Of a DNA stretch of 64,000 nucleotides, positions 5,494 to 28,144 are shown piece by piece. Made by a program: the position numbers and the translations under genes. Numbering within the stretch: the stretch's first letter is position 1; each line of letters begins with the position of its first letter. Under the pieces are notes generated by a model that did not search any database, had not been told where the DNA came from, and saw only the letters and a list, made by a program, of their open reading frames with translations. This DNA is from Alkalispirochaeta sp. (GTDB taxonomy: Bacteria > Spirochaetota > Spirochaetia > DSM-27196 > Alkalispirochaetaceae), in NCBI GenBank assembly GCA_965601925.1, contig OZ271854.1:4896001-4960000 (forward strand), in the 5' to 3' direction.

Positions 5494-5540
5494 GCCCAAA
5501 GACGCCGGTCGCCGGCGCGTCCAGTCCACGTGGAGGAACC

Positions 5541-8363: not shown

Positions 8364-8372
8364 CGCTCCTCC

Positions 8373-9836
8373 TTATACGCTCGCCGTCGTGAAGGCGCCG
8401 AGCTTGGCAACCTCGACGGCGAAGGTGCCGCCGAGGTCTTCGGTCTTTAACTCGTATCCGGTGATGGAGCCGGGTTGATCGACGCGCTCGATCGTAAGCG
8501 AGGCGTAGCGCGCGCCGGCGTCGAAGACGACCTTGTGGAGCTCGGCGACGCTTATTACGTCGGTGGCGCCCTGCTCGTCGTCGTACTGGCGCGGGTAGCG
8601 CGACAGAAAGTAGGTACGCAACGCCTCATCCACCGATTGCAGGGTGGCACCGCTGCGCGTGTCCAACTGAAAGGAGTCGGCGACCACGTTAAAGACGACC
8701 TCGGTCACCGCGCGCGCCTCGACGCGTGCGCCGAGTGGGCGACGTTCGGTGGCCGAGACGTACGCCTCGACCTCGTCCAGCTTCACCGTATCGGGGACGC
8801 GATCGTTCTCGCCCTCCCCCACCAGCGGATAGACGTTGACCTGCCCCGGTGCCGGGGAGTACGCGAAGGCGCGAACCACCCCGGGTACCTCGAGCGCCCA
8901 CGCGACGTAGTCGGCAGCAGCTCCGCCCTGGGGACGGTCGCGACGGCGCTGCCGTACTCGGCGGCGAAACTCCTCGACCGTTTCGGCGTCCTCGCCGACC
9001 GTGGGGCGCAGAGCCTCCGGTATCTCCCACGCCGCGACGGCGGTCGCCGCGGCATCGACACCCGCCGGCGGCGCCGTCAACGATACCGTCTCGCCGGCAG
9101 GAATCGCCTCCAAGCGTTCCGGATCGACCGGGAGGAGTACCGCGACGGCGCGCCACACCGTTACCGGGTCGGCCGGGTCGCCGGTGGGCGCGAGCGCGAC
9201 GGTCTCCTCGACGCGATACCGGTGTTCGACCGGTTGGCCGTCGATTACTTCGCTGTAGGTGAGAAGATCTCCCGCCGGAACCGTTGCCGCACCGGAGCCG
9301 GTTATGCGCGCGGCGCTGCGCACGATGACGGTCGCGTCGCGCTCGACCCCGGTCATGGGAGTGACCAGAGAGACGACCTTGCCCGATCCCAGGGTACCGG
9401 CGTCGCCCGCCTCATCGGCTACGAGGGTAATTACGGCGCTCGGCGGCGCGCCGGCAGGCTCCGCATGAGCGACCAGGGTAACGTCGGCCTCCGTGTAGTA
9501 GGTGTTGCCGCCGAATCGGTAGGGCCTGCCAGCGGGGATGGTCGTTCCTGCAGCCCCGGTAACCACGGCGAAGCCGCGCCACGCTACCGCCGGCTTTGGG
9601 GTGAGGCCGTCTTCGGCGCCGCGCTCCACCAGCGCTTCGGCGTCGCAGGTGGCGACGAAGATCTGTCGCCTGACCCACAAACCGAAGCGGTAGAGGAGCG
9701 CCACCGCGCCCGCTTGGGCGGTCGCAAGGACGCGCCACACGGCGCGTGAGAGGAGCGGTGTTTGGGTACCCGTCGCCCCTTCGATATCGGCCAGGATGGA
9801 ATCGCGAATTTCGGTCACCGTCGGTATCGTCTTCAC
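8373..9836 (-). CDS. Baseplate J / Mu gp47 family protein, copy 2 (internally expanded)
   Basis: IPTVTEIRDSILADI...QIFVATCDAEAL...GEDAETVEEFRRRV...PQGGAAADYVAWALEVPGV. Confidence 0.9.
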   Translation of the reverse strand: MKTIPTVTEIRDSILADIEGATGTQTPLLSRAVWRVLATAQAGAVALLYRFGLWVRRQIFVATCDAEALVERGAEDGLTPKPAVAWRGFAVVTGAAGTTIPAGRPYRFGGNTYYTEADVTLVAHAEPAGAPPSAVITLVADEAGDAGTLGSGKVVSLVTPMTGVERDATVIVRSAARITGSGAATVPAGDLLTYSEVIDGQPVEHRYRVEETVALAPTGDPADPVTVWRAVAVLLPVDPERLEAIPAGETVSLTAPPAGVDAAATAVAAWEIPEALRPTVGEDAETVEEFRRRVRQRRRDRPQGGAAADYVAWALEVPGVVRAFAYSPAPGQVNVYPLVGEGENDRVPDTVKLDEVEAYVSATERRPLGARVEARAVTEVVFNVVADSFQLDTRSGATLQSVDEALRTYFLSRYPRQYDDEQGATDVISVAELHKVVFDAGARYASLTIERVDQPGSITGYELKTEDLGGTFAVEVAKLGAFTTASV

Positions 9837-10231
9837 GTGAGCGCTCCTCTCAGGGCGTCCCAGTTGTGGGCGAATCGATACGTGTCGGCGCCTTGATGGA
9901 CGGTTACCGTAATCTCCAGGGCGGTCGCAGAGACGATGCGTGCCACGACGTCAATCCGATCCGCCACCTTCTCGTCGGTCATCCACGCGAGCGCCGCCTT
10001 GGCCGCCTCGATCGCGTCGAGGCGCAGTTGATTGGTAAGGGTGCCGGAGAGCAGTTTCGGCAGGCGCGAGTCGTAGCGCTCCGCAGGCGACGCGATCTCA
10101 TTTCCCCACCACGATTCGGTAAAGAGGGAGAGATAGACCGCGTTGTCCAGCCCGCCGGTAAGGCGCGGTTCGCCGTTCTCGATAACAATGTCCGCCCCGT
10201 CGGGCGTGGGATGAAGGTATAGATCTGACAT
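9833..10231 (-). CDS. Mu gp46-like baseplate protein
   Basis: GLDNAVYLSLFT...WWGN...SRL...AKAALAWM. Confidence 0.85.
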   Translation of the reverse strand: MSDLYLHPTPDGADIVIENGEPRLTGGLDNAVYLSLFTESWWGNEIASPAERYDSRLPKLLSGTLTNQLRLDAIEAAKAALAWMTDEKVADRIDVVARIVSATALEITVTVHQGADTYRFAHNWDALRGALT

Positions 10232-10234
10232 ACG

Positions 10235-10855
10235 CTAATCCGTTGTAACCTTTGACGATTCAGACCCAGAGATGTCGATCGATGTCGCGGGGGCAGCCCC
10301 GGCTCCGAAGCCGCTCGTACCGCCACCGGTGGTCACTCCGCTGTGCGCGTGACCGGTAATCGCACCGGCAATCGCGGCGTCGACCGATCTTTGAAACAAA
10401 TCGAGCGCGTTCTTCAACTCCTCGTACGTTACCAACGGCTTTCCGCTCCCGTCGCTGCCCAACTTGATCGTCTCGGCGTTCACCGTAACGTTTCCGCCGC
10501 TCACCGTTATCTCCCCGGAACCCCCGTCGGCGTCGACGGTAATCGACCCGTCGGTGCCGAAGCGCGCCGAAGCCTTTACCGCCTCCCCCGCCTCGTCGGT
10601 GGAGTAAACCACCAGCTCGCCGGGCTCGACCGGCACCTCGATCTTGTAGTTGTGCACCGCAATGACGATGCGTCCACCCTGGCCGACCGGCACCGAGAGG
10701 GCGCTGTCCCCGGGCGTGGGTGATGACGCGATCCCCGGTGGCGCGTAGAGCTCCGCGGTGCGCTCCTGACTGTCGGCGCCGGTAATCTGTACCACCACGT
10801 TGGGGGCGGTCGCGGTGCCGCGCGTGTCAATCGCGGCGCCGGTAACCTCGTTCAT
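10235..10855 (-). CDS. Baseplate spike, Mu gp45-like
   Basis: PPGIASSPTPGD...GELVVYS OB-fold/beta-helix pattern and C-terminal HAHSGV metal-binding tip; lies between gp44 and gp46. Confidence 0.8.
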   Translation of the reverse strand: MNEVTGAAIDTRGTATAPNVVVQITGADSQERTAELYAPPGIASSPTPGDSALSVPVGQGGRIVIAVHNYKIEVPVEPGELVVYSTDEAGEAVKASARFGTDGSITVDADGGSGEITVSGGNVTVNAETIKLGSDGSGKPLVTYEELKNALDLFQRSVDAAIAGAITGHAHSGVTTGGGTSGFGAGAAPATSIDISGSESSKVTTD

Positions 10856-10860
10856 GTGTC

Positions 10861-11931
10861 CTATCCCCGCCACGGCAACGCTCCCGGTTTGATATCGGCG
10901 TCGTCGTACGCCTCGGGTATCGATAGTTCCAAATCGGCCTCCTGTCCCTCCTCGGCGTCCATGCGGAGGGTGACGCGACTCACAATGAAGCGCGCCGAAC
11001 GGTAGATCATCGCCCCCGGTGAGGTAAGACGCACGATTTCGCCGGGCTCCCACAGATCGCGACCGTGGGTCCACCCCGAGACGGTGACGTAGAGTCGGAA
11101 CGAGTCGATGAGGGCGCGATTGCGCTCAAAAGTCGCCGCCGCGTTGATGTCCTGCGTCTGCTGCGTGAGACGCCGCACGCGGCGCCCCCGCACCTCGACT
11201 CCGAGCCGCTCGGGATCGCTTGCTGCGGCACTCACGATGGGGACCGAGTCGGTGTGCCCGTAGACCACGTACTCCTGAAAGCGCTTTGTCGCATCGAAGG
11301 AAGAGGAGATCATGCGCATGGGCGACAACCCCTCCTCCAGCTCCACCGTTGCGCGCCGCCGACTACTGAAGCGTACGAAGGAGAGCGACCCGTCGCGTTG
11401 CGGTGAAGCAAAGAGTCCGTGCCCGGCGGCGAGGCCCGAAAGCACTTCATAGACCGTGTCGCCCGCCTCGAACTCGACGATGGGCAGCCGCGGCGTGTCG
11501 GGGCGCGCGACGACGCGGTGCGGGTGTGCGAGCTCGCGCGCCACGGTGTTGAAGGTCACATCTTGGAACTCGTAGCCGCGCCCCGGCCCCCCGGCGCTCC
11601 AGTCCAGGAGCACGCCGCTCTTCCCGCGCCCCTCCACGGAGAGGGAGCGCTCGTCCCCCGCGACCTCCGTCGTCAAACGCTCGACGTAGCCGGTAAGCAC
11701 CACCTCGTTGTCGATGAATATCCGCACCTCCGCAGGGGAGAAAGGTACGAAGCGTGCACGATTAACGGCTGTAGGGTCCCAGTCCAGGGTGAGACGGTAC
11801 GCGTCGGCGCACGAGTCGATAGCGCGGGTGACGACGACGCTCGACCACCCCGTGACTCGCTCTCGGGTCTCCGATAGTCCGACCCAGACCTCGGGCGTCC
11901 CTTCGACCGATGCGGGAGTGCGGTCAGACAT
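10861..11931 (-). CDS. Baseplate hub, Mu gp44 (gpP)-like
   Basis: GWSSVVVTRAID...VLTGYVE...VEGRGKSGVLLD...RFQEYVVYG...TVSGW...LWEPG. Confidence 0.9.
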   Translation of the reverse strand: MSDRTPASVEGTPEVWVGLSETRERVTGWSSVVVTRAIDSCADAYRLTLDWDPTAVNRARFVPFSPAEVRIFIDNEVVLTGYVERLTTEVAGDERSLSVEGRGKSGVLLDWSAGGPGRGYEFQDVTFNTVARELAHPHRVVARPDTPRLPIVEFEAGDTVYEVLSGLAAGHGLFASPQRDGSLSFVRFSSRRRATVELEEGLSPMRMISSSFDATKRFQEYVVYGHTDSVPIVSAAASDPERLGVEVRGRRVRRLTQQTQDINAAATFERNRALIDSFRLYVTVSGWTHGRDLWEPGEIVRLTSPGAMIYRSARFIVSRVTLRMDAEEGQEADLELSIPEAYDDADIKPGALPWRG

Positions 11932-12109
11932 CGCGCTCCTCGTCCGCCGGCTTCTCCCGCGCCGCCCACCTGGCTGAGCCCGCCTCGCGGTTGCGGAGCT
12001 CCGCCGCCAATCGGTAACGTTGCAGCGTCTTTCCGAAGATCGCCTCGTCTACCTCCACGAAACGTTCGACCTCATTGGTTTCCGCGTCATAGAGTTCGAC
12101 CGTCCTCAT
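11924..12109 (-). CDS. Small hypothetical protein after fibre B (possible fibre chaperone)
   Basis: 61 aa, overlapping both neighbours (translational coupling). Confidence 0.55.
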   Translation of the reverse strand: MRTVELYDAETNEVERFVEVDEAIFGKTLQRYRLAAELRNREAGSARWAAREKPADEERDV

Positions 12110-13137
12110 ACCGTGTACCTTCCTGCGTGGAGATAGAGGTGGGTGCCTACGTCGGGACCGTGAGTATCGAGGCCTGTGCGGGGGTCACCGTTAACACCAT
12201 CCGAGAATGGATCGGTGGCTCGAACTGTATTAGCGCCGTCGCTACCGTTGGAATCGCGCAAGAGTCCGATAGCGCCGCCGGGTGTAGTATCGGCTACCGT
12301 TTTGACACGATAATCGGGCGCGCCGCTTCCGTAAGAACCGGCTTCCAACCGAGTGTGATGCCCTTGAAACCGATCCCGCCGCATCAATCCCGAAATCGTC
12401 TCCTCGGTGCCGGCGCCGACCGGTAGGCGACCGCGCCACGAGTGGACGCGCGCCGTCGCGGTACTTCCGGCGACGCGATGGGGATAGATCGTCACCTCCG
12501 TTGCGTCCGTCGCCGGAGTACCGGCGACGGTAATCGAAGGTGTCAGCGGGTCGACCGCCGTGATCTCGTAGGTCACCCCGCCGATATCGACGCTCCGCCA
12601 GTCAGTGAAGGAGTCAAAGGCGAGCTGATCCTCCGCAAGCGCGGCGATGAGGTCGTTGTTCACAGGCGTACCGGCGAGGGTGAAGGTGGCGCCGGAAACC
12701 GAACCGGCAAAGCTCGCAACCTCGCCCGCCTGTCCTTCCAGATAGACGACGCGCTGGTACCGTAGCCACGGCACCAGGTCGGGCCAGTTGGCATCATTCA
12801 CGATCTTGGAGCCGGCAAAGTCGGTGAGACAGAGGCGCGGATGGAACGCCGAGGCATCGCTCTTGTCGAAGGGTGAGGGCGGTACGACGTTACCGGCCCT
12901 GGCGATGACGTCGCCCACCTTGTGGCCATAGCGGATGACCATACCGGCGATGGCCGCCTCGACACTGTGCTCCTGCCCCGGCGCCTCGCCGAGGCCCATC
13001 GCCTCTTGGATACCGATAAGCTCGTCCTGGACGTCGTTGCCGTAGTCCGCCGTGTATACCGTACCGTTGGGGTTGGTGAGCTCGTCGTAGTCGACAAAGG
13101 CGTTGTCTACGTGCCCCGGTCCCGCGATGCGTCGCAT
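12106..13137 (-). CDS. Tail fibre-like protein (fibre B)
   Basis: Anchor GTVYTADYGNDVQDELIG; tip DRFQGH...DGVNGDPRTG; paralogue of fibre A. Confidence 0.75.
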   Translation of the reverse strand: MRRIAGPGHVDNAFVDYDELTNPNGTVYTADYGNDVQDELIGIQEAMGLGEAPGQEHSVEAAIAGMVIRYGHKVGDVIARAGNVVPPSPFDKSDASAFHPRLCLTDFAGSKIVNDANWPDLVPWLRYQRVVYLEGQAGEVASFAGSVSGATFTLAGTPVNNDLIAALAEDQLAFDSFTDWRSVDIGGVTYEITAVDPLTPSITVAGTPATDATEVTIYPHRVAGSTATARVHSWRGRLPVGAGTEETISGLMRRDRFQGHHTRLEAGSYGSGAPDYRVKTVADTTPGGAIGLLRDSNGSDGANTVRATDPFSDGVNGDPRTGLDTHGPDVGTHLYLHAGRYTV

Positions 13138-13177
13138 AGCCTACTCCCTCCCCGATCGTGCGGGCCGTGTCGCGCAA

Positions 13178-14254
13178 TTAGACATAGCGCCCCGCGTGGA
13201 TATAGATGTGTGCCGCCGCCGCCCGCGGCTCGGTGTGGGGACCTATGCGGGGGGTGCCGTTGGTGCCGTCGGTGACGGGAGCGTTCACATGTATATCGTT
13301 GATAGTGTTGACACCCACCGCATCTCCTTGTATCGGAGAACTTTGCCCGAATCCGGCTAAAAAAATTCGGTGATTATGTCCCTGAAACCGATCGCGCCGC
13401 CGGAGCCCCGCCGTCAGCGTGTCGATACCGGCGCCGACTACTGCGCGTCCCCGGAGCGAATAGAGCCGCACCGTATCGGTGGTGCTGGCGATGCGGTGGG
13501 GATAGATCTCGATCGCGGCGTCGATCGTCCCGGAGCCGGCGCCGCCGGCCGTCAGAGCGTCAATTTCGATGCGGTTATCGGCGCCGCCCGGGACGTAGTG
13601 CACGGCGGTGATACGGTAGCTGCCAAGAGGGAAAGGGCCGATCGGGGTGGGCAGCGTGACTGAACGCCACGCATCGTACGTCCCGCCGTACTCGTCGGTG
13701 TGCACGCGTGCGTCCTCCGCAAGTGCACCGATCACCGCATCCTCCGCCGGTCCGCCGGCAATCGACAGCGTCCCGGCCGTGCCGCTCTTCTCCCACGCCG
13801 TGACGCCGAACTGCGTCGTCACGCCGCCCGCGCCGTCGCGATAGACCGCACGGTAGTTGTAGAGGCGACTGAAGAGTCCCGGCGCGCCCCCGAAGTCGGG
13901 GAAGTTGGCCGCCGCAATCGTCCTCGTCGTCGCGAAATCGGTGAGGCACACCGCCGGAAAGTAGGTGTGAGGACTACCGGGGTCGAAGGGTACCGGCGGC
14001 CGGACGTCGCCCGCCGCCGCAAAGAGCTCGCCCACCGGCTTACCGTGTTCCTTTACGATGCGAATCATACCGGCAAGGACGTGGCGGTCGGTCCCCGGCG
14101 CCTCGCCGAGACCGGCGTACTCCTGGATACCGATGAGCTCGTCCTGAACGTCGTTGCCGTAGTCCGCCGTATATACCGTACCGACAGGGTTGGTTGCCGC
14201 GTCGTAGTCGACAAACCGGTTGGCGACATTTCCCGATCCCGCAATGCGTCGCAT
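13178..14254 (-). CDS. Tail fibre-like protein (fibre A)
   Basis: MRRIAGSGNVANRFVDYD...NDVQDELIG; tip DRFQGHNH...DGTNGTPRIGPHTEPR; AGGAG RBS; follows gp48 copy 1. Confidence 0.75.
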   Translation of the reverse strand: MRRIAGSGNVANRFVDYDAATNPVGTVYTADYGNDVQDELIGIQEYAGLGEAPGTDRHVLAGMIRIVKEHGKPVGELFAAAGDVRPPVPFDPGSPHTYFPAVCLTDFATTRTIAAANFPDFGGAPGLFSRLYNYRAVYRDGAGGVTTQFGVTAWEKSGTAGTLSIAGGPAEDAVIGALAEDARVHTDEYGGTYDAWRSVTLPTPIGPFPLGSYRITAVHYVPGGADNRIEIDALTAGGAGSGTIDAAIEIYPHRIASTTDTVRLYSLRGRAVVGAGIDTLTAGLRRRDRFQGHNHRIFLAGFGQSSPIQGDAVGVNTINDIHVNAPVTDGTNGTPRIGPHTEPRAAAAHIYIHAGRYV

Positions 14255-14259
14255 AGCTC

Positions 14260-14886
14260 CTACTCCCTTCCCGCTTCCATAAGTCCCGCCATACCGAGAC
14301 CCGCTTGTGCGGTCGGCTCCTGGTTCAGAATCGTGAGGCCCCCGATCACCGGCTCCATCTCCGCCGGGGCGACGCGATCCAGGAGGTTCAACAGGGCGCG
14401 CAACGCGGGGATATCCTGTACCTCCCCGGTAACGCGGTAGTACGCCACCGGATACCTCCCGTCCCTGGGGGCCCCGGGGGGATACCACACCGGATAATCT
14501 TGCGCCGCCATACGCCCCGCCATGCCGCGACCGGCCATGCGCGAGGAGGCAAACCGCACCGGCTCGATCCTCACGTTGGGAAAGGCGACCTGCACGACCT
14601 CATTGAGCGCCTCCAAGGATTGCCCCTTGCCGGCGCGAAACGCCTGAGTAACCACGGTGCGACGCGTACCGACCGGCTGCGTCGCGTCATGGGTCAGCCC
14701 CAGCTCGGCGTACCAGTCGGGCAAGGTCTCGGTCGCCGTCGAGGGTCCCGCCTCGCGGATCGAGTCGGCGAGAAAGGTCTGCGCGCGCTTCACCGAGAGC
14801 GCTATCGCATCCAACACCGCCGTCATCCCGAGGCCGAAGAGGCGCTCCGGAACGAGCCGGCGAATCATACGGGAGACTGAATCCAC
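14260..14886 (-). CDS. Baseplate wedge protein, Mu gp48/DUF2313-like, copy 1
   Basis: EAGPSTATETLPDWYAELGL...GQSLEAL...RVAPAE; follows gp47 copy 1. Confidence 0.78.
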   Translation of the reverse strand: MDSVSRMIRRLVPERLFGLGMTAVLDAIALSVKRAQTFLADSIREAGPSTATETLPDWYAELGLTHDATQPVGTRRTVVTQAFRAGKGQSLEALNEVVQVAFPNVRIEPVRFASSRMAGRGMAGRMAAQDYPVWYPPGAPRDGRYPVAYYRVTGEVQDIPALRALLNLLDRVAPAEMEPVIGGLTILNQEPTAQAGLGMAGLMEAGRE

Positions 14887-15977
14887 ACGACACCTTCCTC
14901 TTCGAGTCTTGCCAACTGGCCGACCTCCACGGTGTGGCTCGCGATCGCCACGCCGCCAGCGTTTTTGAGCGTCACCGTCGCCACCTCGGCCCCGGCGGCG
15001 ATGGCGATTGAGGTAATCTTCGCCGCCGACACGACGTCGCGCGGACCCGGCTCATCGAGATACTGCCGCGGGCGCCGGTCGTAGAGGTGGGCTTCTACCG
15101 CCGAGTCGATCGCATTCCGCACCTCTTGGGTGTTGGGCTCTAGGCCTGCGATCTCGACGCGAAAGATGAGTTCTGTGGGAGCGGCCACGGTAACTGCGGC
15201 GGCGCGAATGGGGGCCCGCCGGAGGTCGGTAACGTACGAACGCACCTCCTCGATTTTGGCCGCATTCGGTATGCGCAACGCAGGGTCCGGGTCGTCGGTG
15301 ATCGGAAAGAGGGCCAGCGACCCCGCCTCGGTGCGTACCACGTGCGCCTCGGCGATCCCCGGTACCTCGGTCGCCCACAAGACCCAGTCGGGGATAGCGC
15401 CGCCCTGGGGCGCGAGACGGCGACGGAGGCGAACCCTCGCGCGAAAGGCCTCGGTCGACTCGGCGTCCTCGCCCACGACCTCCGTCGCCAGCACCATACC
15501 CTCCGCCTCGAGCCCGGCGAGGGGCGTCACCACGGCGATCGTCGCACCGTCGGCGAGACTCGCCCCGTCGCCGCGTTCGGTCGCTTCCAACACGACGGTC
15601 GCCGAGCCCCCGGTAACGGTCACGGCATTCTGCGCGACGTACGTGCGTCCGTTACCGCGAAAAAGCCGTCCGGCGGGAACGGTCGTACCGTCGACGCCGG
15701 CCGCGCGTGCCGTGCCGCGCCACGCCACCGCCGATTTGGGTACCAGTCCCAACTCGGCGCCGCGCTCGGCGAGCGCCGCGGCATCACACGTCGCGATAAA
15801 GATCTGCCGCCGCACCCAACCGCCGAATCGATATACCAGAGCCAGGGCGCCCGCCAACGCGGTCGCCAAGATGCGCCACGTCGAGCGGGGAAGGAGCGGC
15901 GCGGCCTCGCCGGTAGCCGCCTCTATGTCGGCGAGAATCTGGTCGCGGATCTCCTGTATCGTCGGTATCCTCGTCAC
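14865..15977 (-). CDS. Baseplate J / Mu gp47 family protein, copy 1
   Basis: IPTIQEIRDQILADI...QIFIATCD...GEDAESTEAFRARV...PQGGAIPDWVLWATEVPGI. Confidence 0.9.
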   Translation of the reverse strand: MTRIPTIQEIRDQILADIEAATGEAAPLLPRSTWRILATALAGALALVYRFGGWVRRQIFIATCDAAALAERGAELGLVPKSAVAWRGTARAAGVDGTTVPAGRLFRGNGRTYVAQNAVTVTGGSATVVLEATERGDGASLADGATIAVVTPLAGLEAEGMVLATEVVGEDAESTEAFRARVRLRRRLAPQGGAIPDWVLWATEVPGIAEAHVVRTEAGSLALFPITDDPDPALRIPNAAKIEEVRSYVTDLRRAPIRAAAVTVAAPTELIFRVEIAGLEPNTQEVRNAIDSAVEAHLYDRRPRQYLDEPGPRDVVSAAKITSIAIAAGAEVATVTLKNAGGVAIASHTVEVGQLARLEEEGVVWIQSPV

Positions 15978-16034
15978 CGTACGCCCTCCGGTCTCCGGCG
16001 GTCCGCAACGATCTCCATCCCAGTCGAGATGAAA

Positions 16035-17348
16035 TCAGACATAGTAGCGGACCTCGCGTCCTCGCGGCACGAGCAAGAGCTCGTCGCCCGCGAGTTCGTT
16101 GTACTCGATGCATTCGTCCAACCGATCGAGGCTGCCGAAGAGCTCCACGGCGAGATGAATCGGCGTCGTGTCGCCCTCCAGTACTACGGTGCGCTCCGTG
16201 GGAAGCGCCAAAGCTCCATCCACGAGGGCACCGACCGCGGTAGCCATGATCGCCGCACCGTCGCGCGAGATGTCGTACGTCGGCACCCCCATGCCCTCGG
16301 CGAGGGCGTTCATCTCCCCCGCCAAAGACCGCAACTCTTCCACGGCGTTAACCGCCTCGGCGCGGGTACGAATCGGACGCTCCCCCTCGCCACCGCCGTC
16401 CAACCCCGCAACCGCCGCCTCGCTTACCGCCCCCTGGAGCGCGTAGATCTGCGCGACGGACAAGAGTCCGACCGTCCGGGCGGAGGCGATCTCATCGGCG
16501 TTCATGCGCCGGCGCTCGGCCTCCGTTGCGATATTGCGGCCGACGATCGCCGCTGCGCCGGCGGTCGGAGAGGTCAGCGCCTCGTGCAACTGGGAGAATA
16601 CCGCGCGATAGCCCGCGATCTTCTCCCGGACGTTGGTAATAGTTGTGGCGGGAATGCGATAGAGGCGCAAAAAGCTCTGGGCGAGGGCAACGGGGCTCCG
16701 GATCAGCCCCTCGATGTCGCGACTCATCGCAACGACCGCCGACTCCAACCCTCCCCGTACATCCTCGGCGAGGCCGGCGATCGCCGCAAGCTCGCGCCGC
16801 GCCGCCTCGAGTCCGCCCGCCACACTCTCGCGAAGGGCGGTCAGAGCCGACGGGTCGATGATCTCGGCGGAAGCCAAGGACGAAACGACGCTTTCGGCCA
16901 ACCTCGTGATACCGGCGGCGACCGCCTCATCGGCGGCGATGCGCGAGATAAGGTACTCGAACTTGCGCGAATCGGCGGCGACGAACTCCACCGAAAAGAG
17001 GGCACGCCCCACGCCGTTAAGAAAATGTTCGCTCTGTTGCCACGAGACCGGAAGGACTCCCTGAACGCCCCACCGCGGATGGTCGAGTACGCCCGGCCCC
17101 GCCTCATCCAACGCCGCGGCGAACCGATCCGCCTCCCGATCGTAATCGGGCCCCGAGATGTAACAGGTGACCGGATAGCGCTTGATCGCCTCTCCCAGAT
17201 CCTGGATACCGCCGGAGTTTTCGCCGACGTACTCGCTCACCACCGTGTTGCGGCCCCCGGAGCGCGTCAACTCGTCGAACTGCAGCACGAAGGTCTCGCC
17301 CGAGGCGGTGGTGTAGCGGAACGTTCGCAGGCGATCCGTGGCGCTCAC
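16035..17348 (-). CDS. Mu gpN (gp43)-like 'DNA circularization' / tube-initiator protein
   Basis: GGRNTVVSEY...IQDLG...GPDY...ALDEAGPGVLDHPRWG...FSVEFV N-domain; LysM-like C-terminus (PIHLAVELFG...N...LLVPRG). Confidence 0.88.
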   Translation of the reverse strand: MSATDRLRTFRYTTASGETFVLQFDELTRSGGRNTVVSEYVGENSGGIQDLGEAIKRYPVTCYISGPDYDREADRFAAALDEAGPGVLDHPRWGVQGVLPVSWQQSEHFLNGVGRALFSVEFVAADSRKFEYLISRIAADEAVAAGITRLAESVVSSLASAEIIDPSALTALRESVAGGLEAARRELAAIAGLAEDVRGGLESAVVAMSRDIEGLIRSPVALAQSFLRLYRIPATTITNVREKIAGYRAVFSQLHEALTSPTAGAAAIVGRNIATEAERRRMNADEIASARTVGLLSVAQIYALQGAVSEAAVAGLDGGGEGERPIRTRAEAVNAVEELRSLAGEMNALAEGMGVPTYDISRDGAAIMATAVGALVDGALALPTERTVVLEGDTTPIHLAVELFGSLDRLDECIEYNELAGDELLLVPRGREVRYYV

Positions 17349-17731
17349 GGTTTTGCCGTCCCGTAACCGGTATATATGGTGACGCCGTGGGCACTCCCCC
17401 TCCGTCGGAGGCGCGTTCCGGCGGGCAATGCCACGTTAATGTCGACGACGTGCCGCTCCTCGTTGTAGACCCGCGACTCGACGGTGCGGCCGACGCCTTC
17501 TCCATCACCGCCCGTGACTTTCGGTAGACGTACGCCGGCTGCATCGGTCGCGTCGCCCGGGGCGCCGGCGCGTCCGCTCGACGCGGGGCTCTCGTGGGAG
17601 GGCGACGGCGAGGAGGTCCCGGCCGCGTCCGACGAGGCGCTCGGCGTCGTACCGGCCCCGGACTGCTCCACGGGCGGCACCTGCCCGGCGGCGCGATCGA
17701 ATGCGTCGAAGACGGTACTTACCGCCGACAT
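17345..17731 (-). CDS. Miniature / internally deleted tape-measure-like protein (128 aa)
   Basis: Sits at the TMP position; TMP-like ends (VSTVFDAFDR...; VDINVALPAGTRL...GVTIYTGY) flank an S/A/G/P/T low-complexity linker; GTGA overlap with gpN; weak RBS. Confidence 0.5.
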   Translation of the reverse strand: MSAVSTVFDAFDRAAGQVPPVEQSGAGTTPSASSDAAGTSSPSPSHESPASSGRAGAPGDATDAAGVRLPKVTGGDGEGVGRTVESRVYNEERHVVDINVALPAGTRLRRRGSAHGVTIYTGYGTAKP

Positions 17732-17768
17732 CGAGGCGCTATCGTACGGCCCGGTATGGTACTCCGGC

Positions 17769-17954
17769 TTATTGGCGGATATTGACACGTTGCAAGACCT
17801 CCGCATCGCGACGGTAGAAGTCCATCGCGATCTCATACCACCACCTGAGATCGCGTACGCTCATCGCGGCGATCTCGGAGGGTGGAAATCCAAAACGGTC
17901 GGCGACGGTGCCCATGAGTTCACGGAGCTCTCCGTCGCCGATTAGGCGAAAAAA
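17769..17954 (-). CDS. Frameshifted C-terminal extension of the tail assembly chaperone (gpT/GpE'-like)
   Basis: -1 frame ORF ...VADRFGFPPSEIAAMSVRDLRWWY..., matching the P2 GpE'-type FxxxPSExxxMxxxxLxxW pattern. Confidence 0.7.
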   Translation of the reverse strand, partial: FFRLIGDGELRELMGTVADRFGFPPSEIAAMSVRDLRWWYEIAMDFYRRDAEVLQRVNIRQ

Positions 17955-18466
17955 CCGGTTAGCGCCCCCAAAACCCGCATGTCCCGACGATAGATGCGCT
18001 CGGCGATTCCGAGCGGCCAACTCGTATCGAGGACCGTTATGACGCGAAGGGTCAGCTCCGTCGCCTGTGCGAGCTCGACCTGCATGTCGTCCCCGCCCCC
18101 ACGGGAGACGAACATGTTGCGGCCGATCTTTCTGAGATCCGCCGCCGTTGGCTCCCGCAGAACGACCGTGTCGAAGGACGCGCCGTTGTCGAGGGTAAAG
18201 GGCCGCTGTAGACGGTAGAGGAGCGTGCCCTCACTGGCGTCGTAGTCGACCCACCCCTTGCGGATCGCCGCAAGCACGATCGGCCGCTGGCCCGCGGCGA
18301 GCAGCCCCCACTCGCGCTCCATCGACGCCAACCACTGCTCGGCAACCTCACCGGCCACGACATCGTCGGTCGAATCGTAGTCCGGGTTTCGGTGCTCTTC
18401 GTGAGCGTCGCGGGCCGCGTCCGACATTGTCCCGTTCGACCCGCGATCGATCTCCGTTCTATTCAC
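17942..18466 (-). CDS. Phage tail assembly chaperone (Mu gp41-like)
   Basis: Follows the tube; LQRPFTL...VVLREPTAADL...RDMRVL motif. Confidence 0.78.
   Translation of the reverse strand: MNRTEIDRGSNGTMSDAARDAHEEHRNPDYDSTDDVVAGEVAEQWLASMEREWGLLAAGQRPIVLAAIRKGWVDYDASEGTLLYRLQRPFTLDNGASFDTVVLREPTAADLRKIGRNMFVSRGGGDDMQVELAQATELTLRVITVLDTSWPLGIAERIYRRDMRVLGALTGFFA
17948..17954 (-). promoter_or_regulatory. Programmed -1 ribosomal frameshift heptamer T TTT TTC
   Basis: ACC GGT TTT TTC GCC TAA at the end of the chaperone gene; the -1 frame stays open to 17769. Confidence 0.75.
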
Positions 18467-18485
18467 ACGATCTCTCCGGGACGCA

Positions 18486-18869
18486 TTACACCGGTGCGAA
18501 CTGTACGCCGCGCATGGAGATTCCCAACGTTCCGTCGCGTCCGCTATAGGAGATATCGCCCTCGACCTGGAGCTCCCCCATCCACGTCTCGCCGGTGGCC
18601 AGGGTGAGGGTTACCGGCGTCGGCGCGCTATGGTCGGCGACCGCCTGGAGGGCGGCGAAGTCCTGCGTCTCCGGGTCGATGCTAATCGTCAATCCGTCGA
18701 ATCCGCCGAGTTTGCGCGTCTGCGTCGTGTGCATACCGCCGTTGCCGGTCGGTGCGTTGGTGTTGGTGAAGCCTGCGCGAATCAAGGTGACGCTCGTCTG
18801 GGGCGCCGGCGCATACTCGCGTCCGTCGATCGTAAGTTGGCGGATGTCACCGCCCCGTACCGTTGCCAT
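18486..18869 (-). CDS. Tail tube protein (Mu gpM-like)
   Basis: 127 aa, beta-rich, TAATG-coupled to the sheath; VTLTLATGETW...DGTLGISMRG; GGAGG RBS. Confidence 0.8.
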   Translation of the reverse strand: MATVRGGDIRQLTIDGREYAPAPQTSVTLIRAGFTNTNAPTGNGGMHTTQTRKLGGFDGLTISIDPETQDFAALQAVADHSAPTPVTLTLATGETWMGELQVEGDISYSGRDGTLGISMRGVQFAPV

Positions 18870-20359
18870 TAGTTCGTACCTCCAACGAGAAAAGCCCATT
18901 CCACCTTCGCCGCCAGGATGCGTAGGCCCGCCGACGGAATGTCCGGTATGAGAAGATTGACGCGTCCCGGGTTGGCGGCGTCGATCTCCGCGGTGACGCC
19001 GGCGGCCACCGTATCGCGGTCGGCGGTAAGTCCCCGTGCCGACCAGTCGTTGACGAGCGCCAAGGCGTAGGCGACGACGGTGTTGGGTCTGACCGCGTAG
19101 GTCGGAGCCGGGGGCGCCGAGTCGGCGACGATCACCGCCTGCTGAAAGGGCGCCGACGAGAAGGTGATATCCAGCGCGTTAATCTTGAACTGCAGGTTGG
19201 GAATGATCACTGCAAAGCGCCAATCGTCGGTCGGCACGCCGGTATCGGTGGTGGTGCGCGTGGTGACCGTGTCGCCGATCGTCACACCGCCGTCGGGCAG
19301 GTTATAGGTGTGCGAGCCGCCGGCCTTTACCAACTGGTCGCGCACGGCGTAGGTAAGATCGTTCGCCCCCCCGGCGAGGATGCCCGGGATGCGATTGCCG
19401 CGCACCGGTACGCCCGGTCGCGAACCGTGAGCACCGGCCCACATACCGGCAAAGGCCGGCGCGATCTCGAAGGGAGCGCTCGGCGAACCCAGAACCGGAA
19501 CGGTGACGGTAAACTCCGAATTACGCCCGCCCAAAAAGGAGGTGTACTGGTCGATCGTACCGGTGAATCCGACGATCTGAACGCACATGCGCTTGACCCC
19601 CGGTGCCTGGCGGTCACGACACGCCGTCTCCACCGCAGAAATTGTCGCCCCATCGTCGTAGGGGTTTGCGATCTCGGAGTACCACGTGTCGCCGAGGCCG
19701 GCGAGCGCCGCGGTAAGATCGGGGGCACCGGCGCCGCCGGTCATCTTGTTGGTTGCCGGTACGGTGACCGAGATATCGGTCGGCAACACATCGGTCGACC
19801 GCAGGCCCATACGCACATCGATCTGGTTACCCGAGAGTCCCGCCCACTTCGCGGCAAGGGTAACCGTACCGTCCGCGGGCGCGGCGTCGGCGGCGCTCAC
19901 CGGTAGCCTGGGGTCGGCGTTCACCGCGTTCACGAGGGAGGTTCCGATAGCCGCCGCCGTGTCACCGGAGGCGACCCCGACCGCGACGCGCCGTCCCGCG
20001 ATATAGATCGCCACCTCGCCGGCTCCGGCCGCCGTGCCGACTACGGTAACGGTCGCCGTCGCCGAGGCGGTTCCACCCGACACCGGAAGGGCCGACACGC
20101 GGTAGCCGCCACCGTAGCGAAAGACCGCCTCGGCCATGAGCGCGAGTAGCGACCCCTCGCCGTAGCGATCGCGGGCGTCGGCGACGTCGCGCAGAGCCTG
20201 CGGCACGTCGACCGTCGGCGTCAAAGCGGTGTCGAATTGACCGATCAAGAGAACATGGTGCTCGAACGCGGGAGACCCGCCCGCGCGATTGACCGCCTCC
20301 TGCTCGACAAAGGTCGCCGAAGCGGCGGCGGTGGCGGGGGTCAGCGTAAAACTAATCAT
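18869..20359 (-). CDS. Contractile tail sheath protein (Mu gpL-like)
   Basis: MISF...VLLIGQ...YGEGSLLALMA...IYIAGRRV...DPRLPVSA...VTLAAKWAGLSGNQID...GGAGAPDL...NPGRVNLLIP. Confidence 0.93.
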   Translation of the reverse strand: MISFTLTPATAAASATFVEQEAVNRAGGSPAFEHHVLLIGQFDTALTPTVDVPQALRDVADARDRYGEGSLLALMAEAVFRYGGGYRVSALPVSGGTASATATVTVVGTAAGAGEVAIYIAGRRVAVGVASGDTAAAIGTSLVNAVNADPRLPVSAADAAPADGTVTLAAKWAGLSGNQIDVRMGLRSTDVLPTDISVTVPATNKMTGGAGAPDLTAALAGLGDTWYSEIANPYDDGATISAVETACRDRQAPGVKRMCVQIVGFTGTIDQYTSFLGGRNSEFTVTVPVLGSPSAPFEIAPAFAGMWAGAHGSRPGVPVRGNRIPGILAGGANDLTYAVRDQLVKAGGSHTYNLPDGGVTIGDTVTTRTTTDTGVPTDDWRFAVIIPNLQFKINALDITFSSAPFQQAVIVADSAPPAPTYAVRPNTVVAYALALVNDWSARGLTADRDTVAAGVTAEIDAANPGRVNLLIPDIPSAGLRILAAKVEWAFLVGGTN

Positions 20360-20976
20360 ACTCTTCCCTCCAATTGATACAATCCGGACCAACGGCCCGT
20401 ATCGATGTGTATTTCATTCAGCGGAACGCCCTGGACCTCGCCCACGTCCCACACCAGTTCAACGGTCATAACGACCCGCCGCGTCCGGGAGGGGTGCACG
20501 CCGTGGCGCGGGTCGTCCCAAGAGCTCGGATCGTTCCACGAGATCGTGACCTGCGGTTGCGCAAGCCTCCCGACCACGCCGATGGGCAAGTCAAAGTCCC
20601 AACCTCCCGCGGTCCACAAAGCACGAATCACTTGGGTCACGAGGTAGCGCAGGCGCGCCCCGACCGCCGTGTCCGCCTCCGCAGGGGTGGGAAAGGTTGC
20701 GCCGGTGGGAACCGCCGAGACGCAGTCGAGGTAATAGGCCGCCTCGTAGGCCATGGCGCGCGCCGAGCTCGCCTCACCGCCCCGAAACTTCAACTCCGCG
20801 GCGTAGACGAAAACACTCGCGGGATCGTCGGAGGTGGCGCCCACGTCGGTGGTGTTGTCGGAACGCACCACGAATGCACGGCCCGGGTCCGCCGCCGCCT
20901 CGTCGGCCGCAAACGACTCCAGGCGCGCCACCACGCGATCGAACACGATATCGAAGACCTCGCGTACGTCGCTCAT
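20356..20976 (-). CDS. Putative tail terminator / completion protein
   Basis: Immediately upstream of the sheath with an ATGA overlap; alpha/beta pattern compatible; assignment by position. Confidence 0.55.
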   Translation of the reverse strand: MSDVREVFDIVFDRVVARLESFAADEAAADPGRAFVVRSDNTTDVGATSDDPASVFVYAAELKFRGGEASSARAMAYEAAYYLDCVSAVPTGATFPTPAEADTAVGARLRYLVTQVIRALWTAGGWDFDLPIGVVGRLAQPQVTISWNDPSSWDDPRHGVHPSRTRRVVMTVELVWDVGEVQGVPLNEIHIDTGRWSGLYQLEGRV

Positions 20977-21016
20977 ATCCTCACCCATCGGCGGGGGCAC
21001 TGGCGGCGCGAGGCGA

Positions 21017-21277
21017 TCATTTCGCCCCTTTCGCGGTGCGAGTCGTCCGGCGCGTATTAGGGGTCGGGCCGGCCTTTTCGGAGGTGGTGCGCTTGGCGCT
21101 CGTCTTCTTGGAAGTGCCGCGGCGCCCCGCGGGTCGCACGATCTCCTCGACTACGCCGCGCACGAGGAGCGACTCGATGTCGACGTGCCGCGCAGCCTCA
21201 TCGGAGATAACCGAACCGGGGCGCAAAACGCCTCGTCCTACCGCCACGGTATAGCCCTCTTTCACACGATACGACAT
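21017..21277 (-). CDS. Small basic phage-type protein, first gene of the tail operon
   Basis: YRVKEG...LRPGSVI...IESLLVRGVVEE, then a K/R/T-rich tail. Confidence 0.55.
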   Translation of the reverse strand: MSYRVKEGYTVAVGRGVLRPGSVISDEAARHVDIESLLVRGVVEEIVRPAGRRGTSKKTSAKRTTSEKAGPTPNTRRTTRTAKGAK

Positions 21278-21585
21278 GATTCGATATTACTCTTTCGATA
21301 TAAATATTTTCTCTGTAAAAGAAGCTCTTTGAGAAGACAGTGCTTGTCAACAGCAATATTATTTCTCTTGAAAAATAATGATTGAAACAAAGCTTGAGAA
21401 ATAATCACAACCTTACACTATCCTTAGTTTTTGACCGTGTCAAAGAGAAATCACCCCTTTTCAATGAATTCTTATTTATACAACTCGCAATATCCAACTG
21501 CTTGACAGGCCGCCCGAGTATGCCCGATTCTCGAAGCTGGTAGTCCGACGACAGCCGGCCGCAACGATGCAGCCGCGGAGGCTTT

Positions 21586-24198
21586 ATGAACCGCAGACCC
21601 GGCCAAAACCGCAATCGCCGCTCGCAACCACCGCTGTACGTAGACATCGACGTTCGTACGGAGCGCCGCTCCGCCGCCGGTGGTGGCGATGTCACGAAGA
21701 GGCGTCAAGACGCCGCAAGCCCCTCCGCGAAAACGGAAGCGGTACGTGACACATCCGCCCTCCAATACATCGTGAAACGCCATACCGGCGGAACCGTTTC
21801 GGGCTGGGTCGTGGTGCGCCACACCGACGGATCGATCGCCGTCGACCGCCTGGGCCGATACGGCGACGACATCACCGTCATCGACCGCGTTGACGGCATA
21901 ACCATGCGCTACCCCGATTCGGGAAGAGAACATCCCGCCGCCTTCGTCGCCCGTGTATTGGGAATCGACACTCGAGTCGTCGCGACCTCGCTTAAACGCG
22001 CAGGGTGGGAACGGCTCGACTACGACGGTGGGTGGTCGAATGCGCCCGACGGCGAGCCGTGGATTCTCGAAGGGTCGGATCACGAAGCGGCAGATGCGGC
22101 ATTTCGACGCATCGGCGGAGCGAGTACCTCGGGTAGGGACAACGCCCCCGACTACTCGCCCTCCGGCGAAACCGTGACGAAGCGCGGCATTCCCCTTAAC
22201 TCGCCGCCAAACACATTCGATAGTGAGGTCGCCCGCTCCCGGTCGCAATACGCCGGCCTCAAGGCGACCTATCGCACCCGCACGGGCGAGGAGCATCGTC
22301 GTTTCGGCGAGGAGATCATGGCGCGCGAGGACTCTCAACGCATCGTCGGTCGCGCCGGAAAGAGCGATCGACGCGGCACGGCCCGCACCGTGTCGGGAAC
22401 ACGAGAGCAACCGAGCGGCTCGCGGTCCGACGCGAACGGTGGGGACGATATACCGTCCTCGCCCACACAACGCCGCGATCCGGTCGACCTCGAGCGCGAA
22501 GCCTTTACAGTCGCTACCGGCTGGGTCGTCGTGCTGCGAACGAGCGGGCAGGTAATTGTCGACCGTAGAACGAGTTCCGGTAACGATGTCACGGTTGTTG
22601 ATGCGGTGCGCGGCACGACGGAGACGCATCGCTATCCAGGCAGCGGGAGTCGGACGGGGTTTATCTGTACGATTCTCGGACTTCCGTTCGATCCGACTCA
22701 CCCATTAGACAATCCCGTTAATCAAGGTTTAAGCGGAGCCGGTTGGACTTGGCATTCGGAGACCGATACGTGGACCAACTCACGGTCCGATACGGCGTGG
22801 ACATTATCCCGCATCCAACTCGATGAGATGCAGGTACAATCCTACTCCGCCGAGCAGGATGGGGGGGTAGGAGCAGAAGAGTTATCATCTTTAAAAATAG
22901 ATATCGCAATCCGGAACGCTCTCGCCGGCCTCGAAAGAGTAAGCTTCTTTAACGCAGGATCTACGGATCTTCACGAATTCGGAAGAATGCTCGCAAACGA
23001 ACCGAATCAACATACCGTTGAGCTCATTTCTGATCTGGCAAATCAACGGTCTCAGGAAGCTTCCGAGTACTTATTGTCTAGCGATACCGAGTCTGAAATC
23101 GGCGTCTGGAACTACGAGATTGCAAACTATGAATACCACCGATCACAGTTTTACCTCACCCTCGTAGCGGTCTTTCGAGGAACCATACCACCGAGTACTG
23201 CCGCGCCCGCGCGTCAAACGCTGGATATCGCATACCAGCGCCTCTCTTCGTTTCTACGGGACCGCAATCAGAACCCATTTCACGCTTCAGATGCGTCCAC
23301 GACTTTGAATACCTTGCACTATCGAGAAGCATCCTCAAGGCGAAACATCGAGACAGACTCCCCACCGGAGATTGACATTGTCATGGCGACGATCGGTGAG
23401 TTGCGAAGACTCATAACCCTGAGTGAACCCTTAGATGCGGAGTTCGAGGATCCGAACGATCCAAATGTCCAAAGACGAGTCGAAGCGGTTAACTTTCGAA
23501 TAGTCACGATGATGCTGGTACTACTCAGTACAGCGATCGTGAATCGTCACGGTGAGCTCCGACGATCATTGATAAGAGTATTTCCAGTGTCTCTCCGGTC
23601 GCACGAGCACTTGGATGCATTTCGTGAACTGGTAATACGACGAAATCCCGTAGACTACGAAAACTACCGAAGGCGCACCAACCAGAGGCTTGCGCGGATA
23701 GCACTGACCGCAGCACTAAGTTTGGCATTGGCCAAGGTGGCTATCGCGTCGAGTCTCATAAAAACTGTTAGCGTATCCGGTGCCTTGATCGGTGGAACTG
23801 TCGCATGGACGGGAACCGCATTAGGAGGAGGGTCTCGAGAGCAACGAATTCAAGCTGCCGTAATCGGGGCGATACTTGGCTCGTTCAATTTCGTACCGGC
23901 TCAAAACATGCCTGGACTAATGAGCTATCTAAGCCAAATTGGAATCGAGGCGGTGACCGGTGCCCTATCGTCTCTTTTTGGTCAAGTTTTTAGCGGAGCA
24001 GGTTCCATTGATTTTGACCATATAGGCGCGTCAGCTCTCCTTTCCGGCATAGCTAGCGCCACAAACTTTTCCAGTCTATTTCGTCATTTAGCCGATAATC
24101 GGATCATAATTTTAAATGAATTGGGAAAATTCACAGAATTAACATCGAATGTTATAGCTTCTAGAATCTTATTTCTCATGAGTGAAAGCCGAGAATGA
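21586..24198 (+). CDS. 870-aa hypothetical protein with duplicated N-terminal domain and Gly/Ala-rich hydrophobic C-terminus (candidate effector)
   Basis: GGAGG RBS; long open frame; internal repeat GWVVV..T.G...VDR....G.D.TV.D.V.G.T..RYP; several hydrophobic helices at the C-terminus. Confidence 0.75.
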   Translation: MNRRPGQNRNRRSQPPLYVDIDVRTERRSAAGGGDVTKRRQDAASPSAKTEAVRDTSALQYIVKRHTGGTVSGWVVVRHTDGSIAVDRLGRYGDDITVIDRVDGITMRYPDSGREHPAAFVARVLGIDTRVVATSLKRAGWERLDYDGGWSNAPDGEPWILEGSDHEAADAAFRRIGGASTSGRDNAPDYSPSGETVTKRGIPLNSPPNTFDSEVARSRSQYAGLKATYRTRTGEEHRRFGEEIMAREDSQRIVGRAGKSDRRGTARTVSGTREQPSGSRSDANGGDDIPSSPTQRRDPVDLEREAFTVATGWVVVLRTSGQVIVDRRTSSGNDVTVVDAVRGTTETHRYPGSGSRTGFICTILGLPFDPTHPLDNPVNQGLSGAGWTWHSETDTWTNSRSDTAWTLSRIQLDEMQVQSYSAEQDGGVGAEELSSLKIDIAIRNALAGLERVSFFNAGSTDLHEFGRMLANEPNQHTVELISDLANQRSQEASEYLLSSDTESEIGVWNYEIANYEYHRSQFYLTLVAVFRGTIPPSTAAPARQTLDIAYQRLSSFLRDRNQNPFHASDASTTLNTLHYREASSRRNIETDSPPEIDIVMATIGELRRLITLSEPLDAEFEDPNDPNVQRRVEAVNFRIVTMMLVLLSTAIVNRHGELRRSLIRVFPVSLRSHEHLDAFRELVIRRNPVDYENYRRRTNQRLARIALTAALSLALAKVAIASSLIKTVSVSGALIGGTVAWTGTALGGGSREQRIQAAVIGAILGSFNFVPAQNMPGLMSYLSQIGIEAVTGALSSLFGQVFSGAGSIDFDHIGASALLSGIASATNFSSLFRHLADNRIIILNELGKFTELTSNVIASRILFLMSESRE

Positions 24199-24340
24199 AC
24201 TTTCCTTTATTGATCCTTCATCATTTGCCCGCTATTTACTCTCAGGTAGCACGCCATTAATGGCAGCCATCGTAAAAGAGAATCGTGTCACGAAAACAAA
24301 GTCTCAAGGAGTATCGGTGACTCCCTCCCCCTTACTCCGC

Positions 24341-24458
24341 GATCCCGGCGTGCCAATCCGCGGCAACGGGATAGTACCAGTCCTCAACCGGAGCATTGAG
24401 CGTAAGAAAGAGACACCTCAAGGTGGATCGCCGCCGCGGTATTTTCGGAAACTATCTC
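24341..24458 (-). repeat. Decayed direct copy of the 3' end of the adenylate cyclase gene (24974-25093)
   Basis: gatcccggcgtgcca.tccgcgg.aacgg...ccagtcctc..ccgg...agaaagagacacc...gatcgccg aligns by eye, with substitutions and a small deletion. Confidence 0.8.
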
Positions 24459-24573
24459 CACGGCGTTGCTTGCGGATGGGGAGATGATCGACATCGCGCG
24501 CGCCTTAGATTGTCGATCGGCTAATCAATCGCGGCGTCGCAAGCTCCCGCTCCGAGCGCTACAGTGTGCGATA

Positions 24574-24867
24574 ATGAGGCTCTTATCGGCCTTGTTTGTC
24601 GCATTCCTCGTACTGACCGTCGTCTCGCACCCCCGGGCCGACGAGGGCTCCGCCGAGGACGAGTCGTCCGGATTCCGGGAGCTCGACGATGGATTGTTGC
24701 TTCGCGGTGGCGTAGGAACGGGTAATCAAACGATCTCTTTCGGTGTGCAAGATGCCGATCTGTCTCACCACGAAATCACCGTTGCGCCCAATGCATCCCT
24801 GTACGTGATCCTGGGACTTCAGTACCGTCGCATCGGCCAAGCTACGTCTCGTCACAACGGTGGGTAA
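24574..24867 (+). pseudogene. Probable truncated secreted / outer-membrane protein fragment
   Basis: Signal peptide MRLLSALFVAFLVLTVVSHPRA, then beta-strand-like APNASLYVILGLQYRRIG (reminiscent of DUF4421 N-termini), then an abrupt end. Confidence 0.4.
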
Positions 24868-24955
24868 CGTCGAGGAGACCGGCGAACGGCATCCGAGAAA
24901 TCGCATCATAGCACGGTAGTCGTCGACGTCGTATGCACGAGTGGGGCGACATCCC

Positions 24956-26425: not shown

Positions 26426-26595
26426 CTTGGTCCTCCGTGAAATCGTATTCTTACTTCTCCGGTGTGTCGCGCCGGCACGGTACGCTTTGCACTCCCTCGG
26501 TGGGAGTTGTAATTGCATCATTATATCGTATGCAGCGCATTCTTGCACGGAAGCCTTCGGAAGGAGGGGTCGAGGGGCGGGTAGTAATGGACGTT

Positions 26596-26706
26596 CTACA
26601 CCAAATTATGCCGTCGCGCCGTCTCCATGAGGCGGCGATTCCACGCGTTGTCGTTGAGAAAGCGCATCTTGTCGCGATAGTCGTCGATGCGGCTGGTGCG
26701 TTCCTG
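26596..26706 (-). repeat. Displaced 3' end (111 bp) of the 29393-32191 gene; direct repeat of 29393-29503
   Basis: Both copies encode QERTSRIDDYRDKMRFLNDNAWNRRLMETARRHNLV*; 4 mismatches, all silent. Confidence 0.93.
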
Positions 26707-26769
26707 GACTGCTCACCACGCCCAGCATATATCATGCAATATGAGGAGGTCGATTACATCACAGCAGAT

Positions 26770-28071: not shown

Positions 28072-28144
28072 ACAATACTCTTTCTCGCAAGGCATAAGTA
28101 TATAATCATTTCAAATGTTTTTACTAAGATCTGGTAAGGTAATC

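Follow-up and report, generated by a model that had tools for sequence, protein, structure and literature searches.

A contractile phage tail of the Mu type, encoded in the genome of an Alkalispirochaeta species, carries in the slot of its tape-measure protein (TMP) a miniature of 128 to 147 residues which, from comparison of its carboxy-terminal end with that of long TMPs, is a remnant of such a protein. By the same kind of comparison, made with the proteins of other carriers, the short form is conserved and is not the lesion of one strain. We take it that the locus specifies a domesticated tailocin-like tail, where this minimal TMP would plug the hub and meter some 5-6 rings (~20-25 nm), and we give this reading a probability of about 0.55. 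The window, as we name the whole stretch of DNA that was analysed, is 64,000 nucleotides long (contig OZ271854.1, positions 4,896,001 to 4,960,000).

The miniature gene and its relatives

On the minus strand the chaperone extension stops at 17769 and gpN starts with GTG 17348, leaving 420 bp between them, the gap of about 420 bp that the initial annotation had noted. The open reading frame located there (17731-17345, 128 aa) begins with MSAVSTVFDAFDR and ends with ...VDINVALPAGTRL...GVTIYTGYGTAKP, and its coupling to gpN by a GTGA overlap, also proposed at the outset, is borne out in the sequence. The frame stays open upstream of ATG 17731, a codon that lacks a Shine-Dalgarno site, and GTG 17788 is likely to be the favoured start, giving a protein of 147 aa. 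Database gene calls differ on this point: for the miniature gene and two homologues (P0007, P0011, P0009) they place the start upstream, and for two homologues (P0008, P0010) downstream; in a distant homologue, P0018, the amino-terminal motif lies 23 residues from the start, exactly as in the 147-aa form. The poor ribosome-binding site that had been held as a caveat probably disappears with GTG 17788, since a good GGAGGT stands 8 nt upstream of it; as this site is situated inside the coding sequence of the chaperone extension, it may have arisen there by chance. Residues 15-82 comprise 71% S/A/G/P/T and 9% bulky hydrophobic residues, and an AlphaFold model of low confidence (pLDDT 45) renders the linker as coil. 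The GC3 of the gene, 0.79, is similar to that of neighbouring and core genes. An assembly artefact was rejected: two Logan contigs, spanning 6713-22400 and 16900-19000 and probably coming from the source sample, show 0 differences over these spans.

Tape-measure ancestry was explored with profile HMMs of the ends of long TMPs (last 55-65 residues of 9 proteins, first 60 of 12), the short gene being left out. Among the 46,591 six-frame ORFs of the genome both profiles placed the miniature first, with E 1.3e-8 for the C-end (next best 0.29) and E 0.12 for the N-end (next best 0.81), a value that is not significant alone. Of the TMP-like termini read from the sequence at first sight the C-end is upheld in this way and the N-end probably so; the absence of a helical or hydrophobic body is upheld too, the bulky-hydrophobic fraction being 0.09 versus a minimum of 0.19 across 110 long members. 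The miniature has no match among the TMP families of Pfam and PHROG. Relatives of gpN and of the sheath were drawn from GTDB genomes, IMG/VR and JGI metagenomes, several of the loci being duplicates: in every headed relative that is readable whole, the slot before gpN is filled by a 445-722-aa protein, and these long slot proteins match TMP PHROGs in the five cases tested out of five. Across 400 class-level genomes there were six clear matches, all within frames of 471-600 aa.

In many of the long TMPs a spacer rich in G/P/S/A/T, a few dozen residues long, comes directly before the C motif, and 80 residues of the L033 protein can be aligned with the miniature (E 4.5e-7, database of 13 proteins). 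The linker is therefore probably a native spacer. Where the initial annotation saw the body replaced by a disordered linker, the body is indeed gone, but what stands in its place is not wholly new and is probably in part this G/P/S-rich segment. We can thus understand the present gene as probably resulting from one large in-frame deletion, which would have fused the spacer of a long TMP, then or later extended, to the N motif.

Three homologues of 118-144 aa are 64-76% identical to the miniature. The accessions of P0008 and of the gpN homologue P0003 (85% identical) follow one another, on a 3,980-bp contig of a Spirochaetales metagenome-assembled genome; P0010 and the gpN homologue P0002 (86%) are each on a 4,595-bp contig, and the gpN homologue P0004 (60%) is on a 345-kb contig. 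When the four short sequences are aligned, 48 of 60 columns are invariant at the ends versus 16 of 68 in the middle, the linker indels are all in frame, and close homologues differ by ~10 aa in linker length. When 1.84 billion protein representatives were searched with a profile, 172 matches came out; among the best 150 of these, 110 are 401-837 aa long (median 507), of which 97 have the N motif, and 15 are 90-150 aa long. Twelve of these 15 short matches (94-144 aa) keep a hydrophobic body and were for that reason set aside as fragments of long TMPs; P0008, P0018 and P0062 are without it. P0018, whose N motif is at the same offset as in the miniature, and P0062, whose N motif is degenerate, come from contigs of 955 and 550 bp and may be cut. 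The signature RVY.EERH is found in six of the 153 sequences compared, all of them 118-147 aa long and 42-77% identical overall, and over the last 43 residues its carriers match at 31-37 versus at most 25 in all other compared sequences. The alignment of the short forms found nothing in JGI metagenomes and IMG/VR, and a search, itself weak, for a longer homologue of the miniature found nothing either. In a second study, represented by 151-nt contig pieces at a depth of 2-4, 19 of 26 tail-gene differences are synonymous (7 of 33 rows, outside tail genes, were dropped) and none of the 26 sites is within the miniature gene.

Whether orthologous loci keep a short in-frame TMP was a natural check on the gene, and the closest relatives do. 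A lethal deletion in this strain, one of the outcomes envisaged at first, is therefore unlikely, and a strain-specific lesion was rejected on account of the short in-frame form present in relatives at 42-77% identity.

A tail without its head

One tail operon of the Mu-like contractile type runs on the minus strand from 21277 to 6010 (Table 1), in the order 86-aa gene, completion, sheath, tube, chaperone with its intact extension, miniature TMP, gpN, wedge set a, two fibres, 61-aa gene, hub, spike, gp46, wedge set b and FG-GAP fibre. The contractile tail gene set is complete, spike and completion being assigned from position and similarity. Every tail gene has an open frame of full length; their GC3 is host-like (0.73-0.81), only the FG-GAP fibre standing apart with 0.61. 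An additional cassette of wedge and fibre genes (12106-15977) separates gpN from gpP, which directly adjoin each other in the headed relatives read. Before the operon, an A+T-rich intergenic region (21280-21500) harbours near 21430-21445 the inverted repeat TTTGAC-ACG-GTCAAA, possibly an operator; scans for promoters and terminators stayed at chance level.

Table 1. Features of the tail locus and of the island that holds it, in window coordinates
Feature	Position	Strand	Remarks
Island (26.6 kb) between tRNA-Met and core 932-aa gene	2783..29394		empty site in same-genus loci
86-aa first gene of operon	21017..21277	-	no family match; not matched by HMM of 3 small post-capsid genes
Tail completion/terminator, by position	20356..21000	-	24-33% to same-slot genes of headed relatives
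Mu gpL-type tail sheath	18869..20392	-	phrog_165 E 7e-91; Mu gpL 28%
Tail tube	18486..18899	-	phrog_4699
Tail assembly chaperone	17942..18466	-	PF10109 E 2.5e-7
Chaperone -1 frameshift extension	17769..17954	-	slippery T TTT TTC 17954-17948; phrog_6416; same-slot homologues in headed relatives
Shine-Dalgarno-like GGAGGT (17802-17797)	17791..17802	-	8 nt before GTG 17788
Miniature tape-measure protein	17345..17788	-	147 aa from GTG 17788; 128 aa from ATG 17731
N-terminal TMP motif STVFDAFDR	17690..17731	-	long relatives: STVFxAVD; 13/14 columns invariant, 4 homologues
Low-complexity S/A/G/P/T linker	17486..17689	-	variable, in-frame indels; 16/68 columns invariant
Conserved C-terminal TMP motif ESRV...VDINV.LP.GT....GV....GY	17348..17485	-	predicted hub plug; 35/46 columns invariant
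gpN (Mu gp43) tube initiator	16035..17348	-	PF07157, phrog_184
Baseplate J, copy a	14865..15977	-	PF04865
gp48-like wedge, copy a	14260..14886	-	PF10076 E 5.9e-9
Two tandem tail fibres (about 357, 343 aa)	12106..14251	-	phrog_9777; mutual identity 41%
gpP (Mu gp44) hub	10861..11931	-	PF21683, PF22255, PF21929
Spike, by position	10235..10894	-	28-43% to same-slot genes; no Pfam match
gp46 wedge	9833..10231	-	PF07409
Second baseplate J and second gp48-like wedge	7797..9836	-	family matches
Fibre with FG-GAP propeller	6010..7800	-	PF14312 E 6e-89; N-end matches fibre PHROGs
Fourth fibre gene	2983..3885	+	phrog_2097 and others; N-end 63-65% like FG-GAP fibre

No head, packaging or replication gene is present at the tail locus, nor was the set of an intact prophage found there (terminase, portal, capsid, head closure, integrase with the tail). 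In headed relatives a gene of 110-131 aa is placed directly before the completion gene, in 11/11 and 4/4 loci examined, and one such gene matches a head-closure PHROG (E 6e-5). Here a gap of 16 bp precedes the completion gene, and no match to the head-closure gene was obtained anywhere in the genome. A search of this single-contig, 96.7%-complete genome for a cognate portal, terminase or capsid found none. That the genome as a whole is devoid of head genes was rejected, an unrelated prophage holding terminase and portal; this sole head module found belongs to a separate element, which lies at a distance of 1.2 Mb and has tail genes of its own.

The operon is part of an island that is absent from 6/6 same-genus loci, where tRNA-Met and the core 932-aa gene are ~70-100 bp apart, and the tail module is present in 0/21 same-family genomes, all but one of which are fragmented. 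Among the island ORFs scanned, several of them small and without family, none could be recognised as an integrase, a lysis gene or a regulator. A 112-nt direct repeat (97%; 26598-26709 and 29395-29506) duplicates the 3' end of the core 932-aa gene and flanks two low-GC3 genes (PQQ propeller, SH3), in a way that resembles an integration scar; segments 24333-24417 and 24966-25050 are an 80% duplicate of the 3' end of a GAF-adenylate cyclase gene. On the plus strand, 4838-5816 encodes a toxin-antitoxin-like pair (CopG antitoxin PF12441) with three ORFs without family. Divergent from the tail operon, an orphan ORF of 870 aa (21586-24198, plus strand; GC3 0.58, no family) contains a pair of beta-rich stretches that resemble each other, and its C-end is hydrophobic and helical, its AlphaFold model (pLDDT 35) being unusable; its Atlas leads, to PT-TG and DUF637 clusters, are all below 0.9, and no lead of at least 0.9 with a family was found in the Atlas.

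Ruler, plug and predicted length

A scenario can be proposed from these gene contents. Once the head was lost, with no DNA left to deliver, the channel-forming, membrane-interacting body of the TMP would have become dispensable. Its C-end would have been retained because it is needed by the hub and the spike, as in Mu, and its N-end in order to meet the terminator; both anchors, together with the chaperones and the terminator, would have stayed under selection after head loss, the stretched linker setting tail length. With two wedge sets and four fibres the particle would reach a wider range of targets, and its release would rely on lysis genes located elsewhere.

An extended chain spans ~0.35 nm per residue, and at this pitch the 68-residue linker would cover ~24 nm. 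Estimates can also be drawn from other systems. In Mu a TMP of 690 residues gives 30 rings (PMC11915804), and the rings of Pam3 rise by 37.2 A (PMC9942802): at the 23 residues per ring of Mu, 128-147 aa would produce 5.6-6.4 rings, ~21-24 nm. With the 0.229 nm per residue of AlgoCIS, the whole particle would measure 29-34 nm (10.64898/2026.05.27.728243). Against this, the relation between TMP and tail length in TP901-1, when extrapolated, leaves no tail at 127 residues (PMC5099701), so that the tube could be near nil. Taken together these estimates set a predicted range of 0-35 nm, with 20-25 nm as our best guess, and an ultra-short tail is what we would best infer from the miniature. We also infer, by analogy with Mu, where according to the same structural account the C-end of the TMP, the hub and the spike seal the tail and the spike binds weakly without the TMP (PMC11915804), that the C-end would dock in the hub as a plug. 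A broader view, tentative and somewhat short of an even chance, would see here a lineage of spirochaete tailocin-like machines in which a disordered string with two anchors builds the shortest known contractile injection particle, of ~5-6 rings, the helical body of TMPs being needed only for DNA delivery.

The protein could also be a plug and not a ruler, stabilizing hub and spike only, with tube length set otherwise or near zero, and the outcome would be either long variable polymers or a particle made of baseplate and fibres. The C-end is far better conserved and matched than the N-end, linker length differs by ~10 aa among close homologues, and both the zero-tail intercept of TP901-1 at 127 aa (PMC5099701) and the weak binding of the Mu spike without the TMP (PMC11915804) would fit. 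This is unlikely, however, when one considers that the N motif is invariant at 13 of 14 columns and is found again in P0018 with an identical offset, that the chaperone, the slippery site and the completion gene are retained with sheath and tube intact, and that proteins 42-77% identical all keep a total length of 118-147 aa. We find it improbable that the short TMP derives from headed phages with stubby tails, this copy being the partly deleted prophage of one of them: every headed relative with a readable slot has a long TMP, the short-form alignment matched nothing in IMG/VR, the head-closure gene has gone cleanly from between two genes that remain, and the hydrophobic body is gone, even if the island is patchy, the end of a core gene is duplicated nearby over 112 nt, and the module is absent from 21 same-family genomes. 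The locus might be a dead remnant, its operon decaying after a deletion that killed tail assembly, as the absence of a recognised lysis gene at the locus, the rearranged gene order and the stray fibre on the other strand could suggest; yet the short form is kept in frame across 42-77% identity with conservation biased towards the ends, no tail gene is broken, and 19/26 differences in the second study are synonymous, which makes this quite improbable. Finally, the idea that the emptied lumen would carry an effector, such as the product of the divergent 870-aa ORF, foreign-looking by its GC3, with its hydrophobic helical C-end and its sub-0.9 leads to PT-TG and DUF637 clusters, is very improbable, for the lumen left free for cargo that the initial annotation had evoked finds no support in an operon where no loading ATPase or recognised effector is seen, the ORF has neither a family match nor a usable model, a lumen of 5-6 rings has little room, and in AlgoCIS the cargo load falls when the TMP is shorter (10.64898/2026.05.27.728243).

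Known contractile systems and other tails of the genome

If the domesticated tail with a short ruler is retained as the preferred reading, its closest parallel is the R-type syringacin of Pseudomonas syringae: both keep a Mu-like contractile tail without head, packaging or replication genes (PMC4542187, PMC4684702). This tailocin, derived from Mu/SfV, has predicted lysis and regulator genes at a fixed locus (PMC4542187), whereas none were recognised here; the present locus differs further by two wedge sets and four fibres, another host phylum and an independent origin. Classic tailocins are fixed in a clade, whereas no same-family genome among 21 has this module. The TMPs of Pseudomonas R-tailocins, 354-963 aa and shorter than those of prophages, all remain more than twice as long as the miniature, which at 128-147 aa is less than half their minimum of 354 aa (PMC4684702). 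The locus resembles a Mu-derived R-tailocin and is a candidate member of that class, lysis being unaccounted for and the module not fixed in the host clade.

With Mu itself, sheath, tube, chaperone, TMP, gp43/gpN, gp44 hub, gp45 spike and gp46-48 wedge are common (gp39-gp48; PMC11915804), and in both the TMP gene is directly before gpN; Mu differs in having a head, a 690-aa TMP and 30 rings, and sheath identity is only 28%. Headed spirochaete-associated phages (L030-L033, L047, L073-L077, L079-L088) share the same tail set and the same N and C motifs of the TMP, with 35-53% identity to this operon for the sheath and 29-38% for gpN, while keeping portal, protease, capsid, head closure, a single wedge set and a TMP of 445-600 aa. 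The engineered short TMP of AlgoCIS, an extracellular contractile injection system (eCIS), offers a further parallel: its ends are structured, and the helical segment between them, which can be taken out, determines how long the particle is. It belongs to a lineage with an AAA+ loader and cargo, and the shortened particle is still ~89 nm (10.64898/2026.05.27.728243). Neither an AAA+ loader nor an eCIS-type baseplate is in the present operon, whose genes are Mu-type with no ATPase among them, and an eCIS identity was rejected on this gene content; a Pvc16-type cap and the eCIS core domain gave no match, the controls being silent too. As single queries against IMG/VR, gpN and the sheath found nothing. 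The literature searched, most subscription papers being outside its scope, provided no natural TMP of a contractile system this short and no spirochaete tailocin, and the locus is likely to be a variant of Mu-derived R-tailocins, with a miniature TMP, not met in that literature.

We may see in the miniature TMP a natural experiment on the minimal requirements of a tape measure. If particles form, the roles of ruler and plug would be separable from that of membrane channel, whether a disordered linker can meter a tube would be put to the test, a lower bound would be set on the length of a working contractile sheath, and phage-tail weapons would be indicated in spirochaetes. A ruler of 147 aa with a free linker would also be a simple handle for tuning particle length.

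The miniature is not the only TMP of the genome, as could have been supposed: there are two others, of 463 and 773 aa. The latter belongs to a complete-looking prophage at ~3,695,600-3,731,000 of the contig (L093), with terminase, portal, protease and major tail protein; it also encodes a tail protein of 1,660 aa, and no sheath was noticed. A lone membrane-protein gene (~9,900-10,600 of the contig; L089 5886-6599), 37-46% like a head-region gene of related phages, would at a guess be holin-like. A second head-less contractile operon, of another family, is on the minus strand of the same contig at ~153,000-165,400 (L090, L091), next to topoisomerase genes, and was not found in the 21 same-family genomes. 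It comprises a sheath (phrog_205), a chaperone, the 463-aa TMP, a hub, an amidase endolysin between spike and wedge, J and a fibre, and the N-end of that fibre resembles that of the FG-GAP fibre at 6010..7800.
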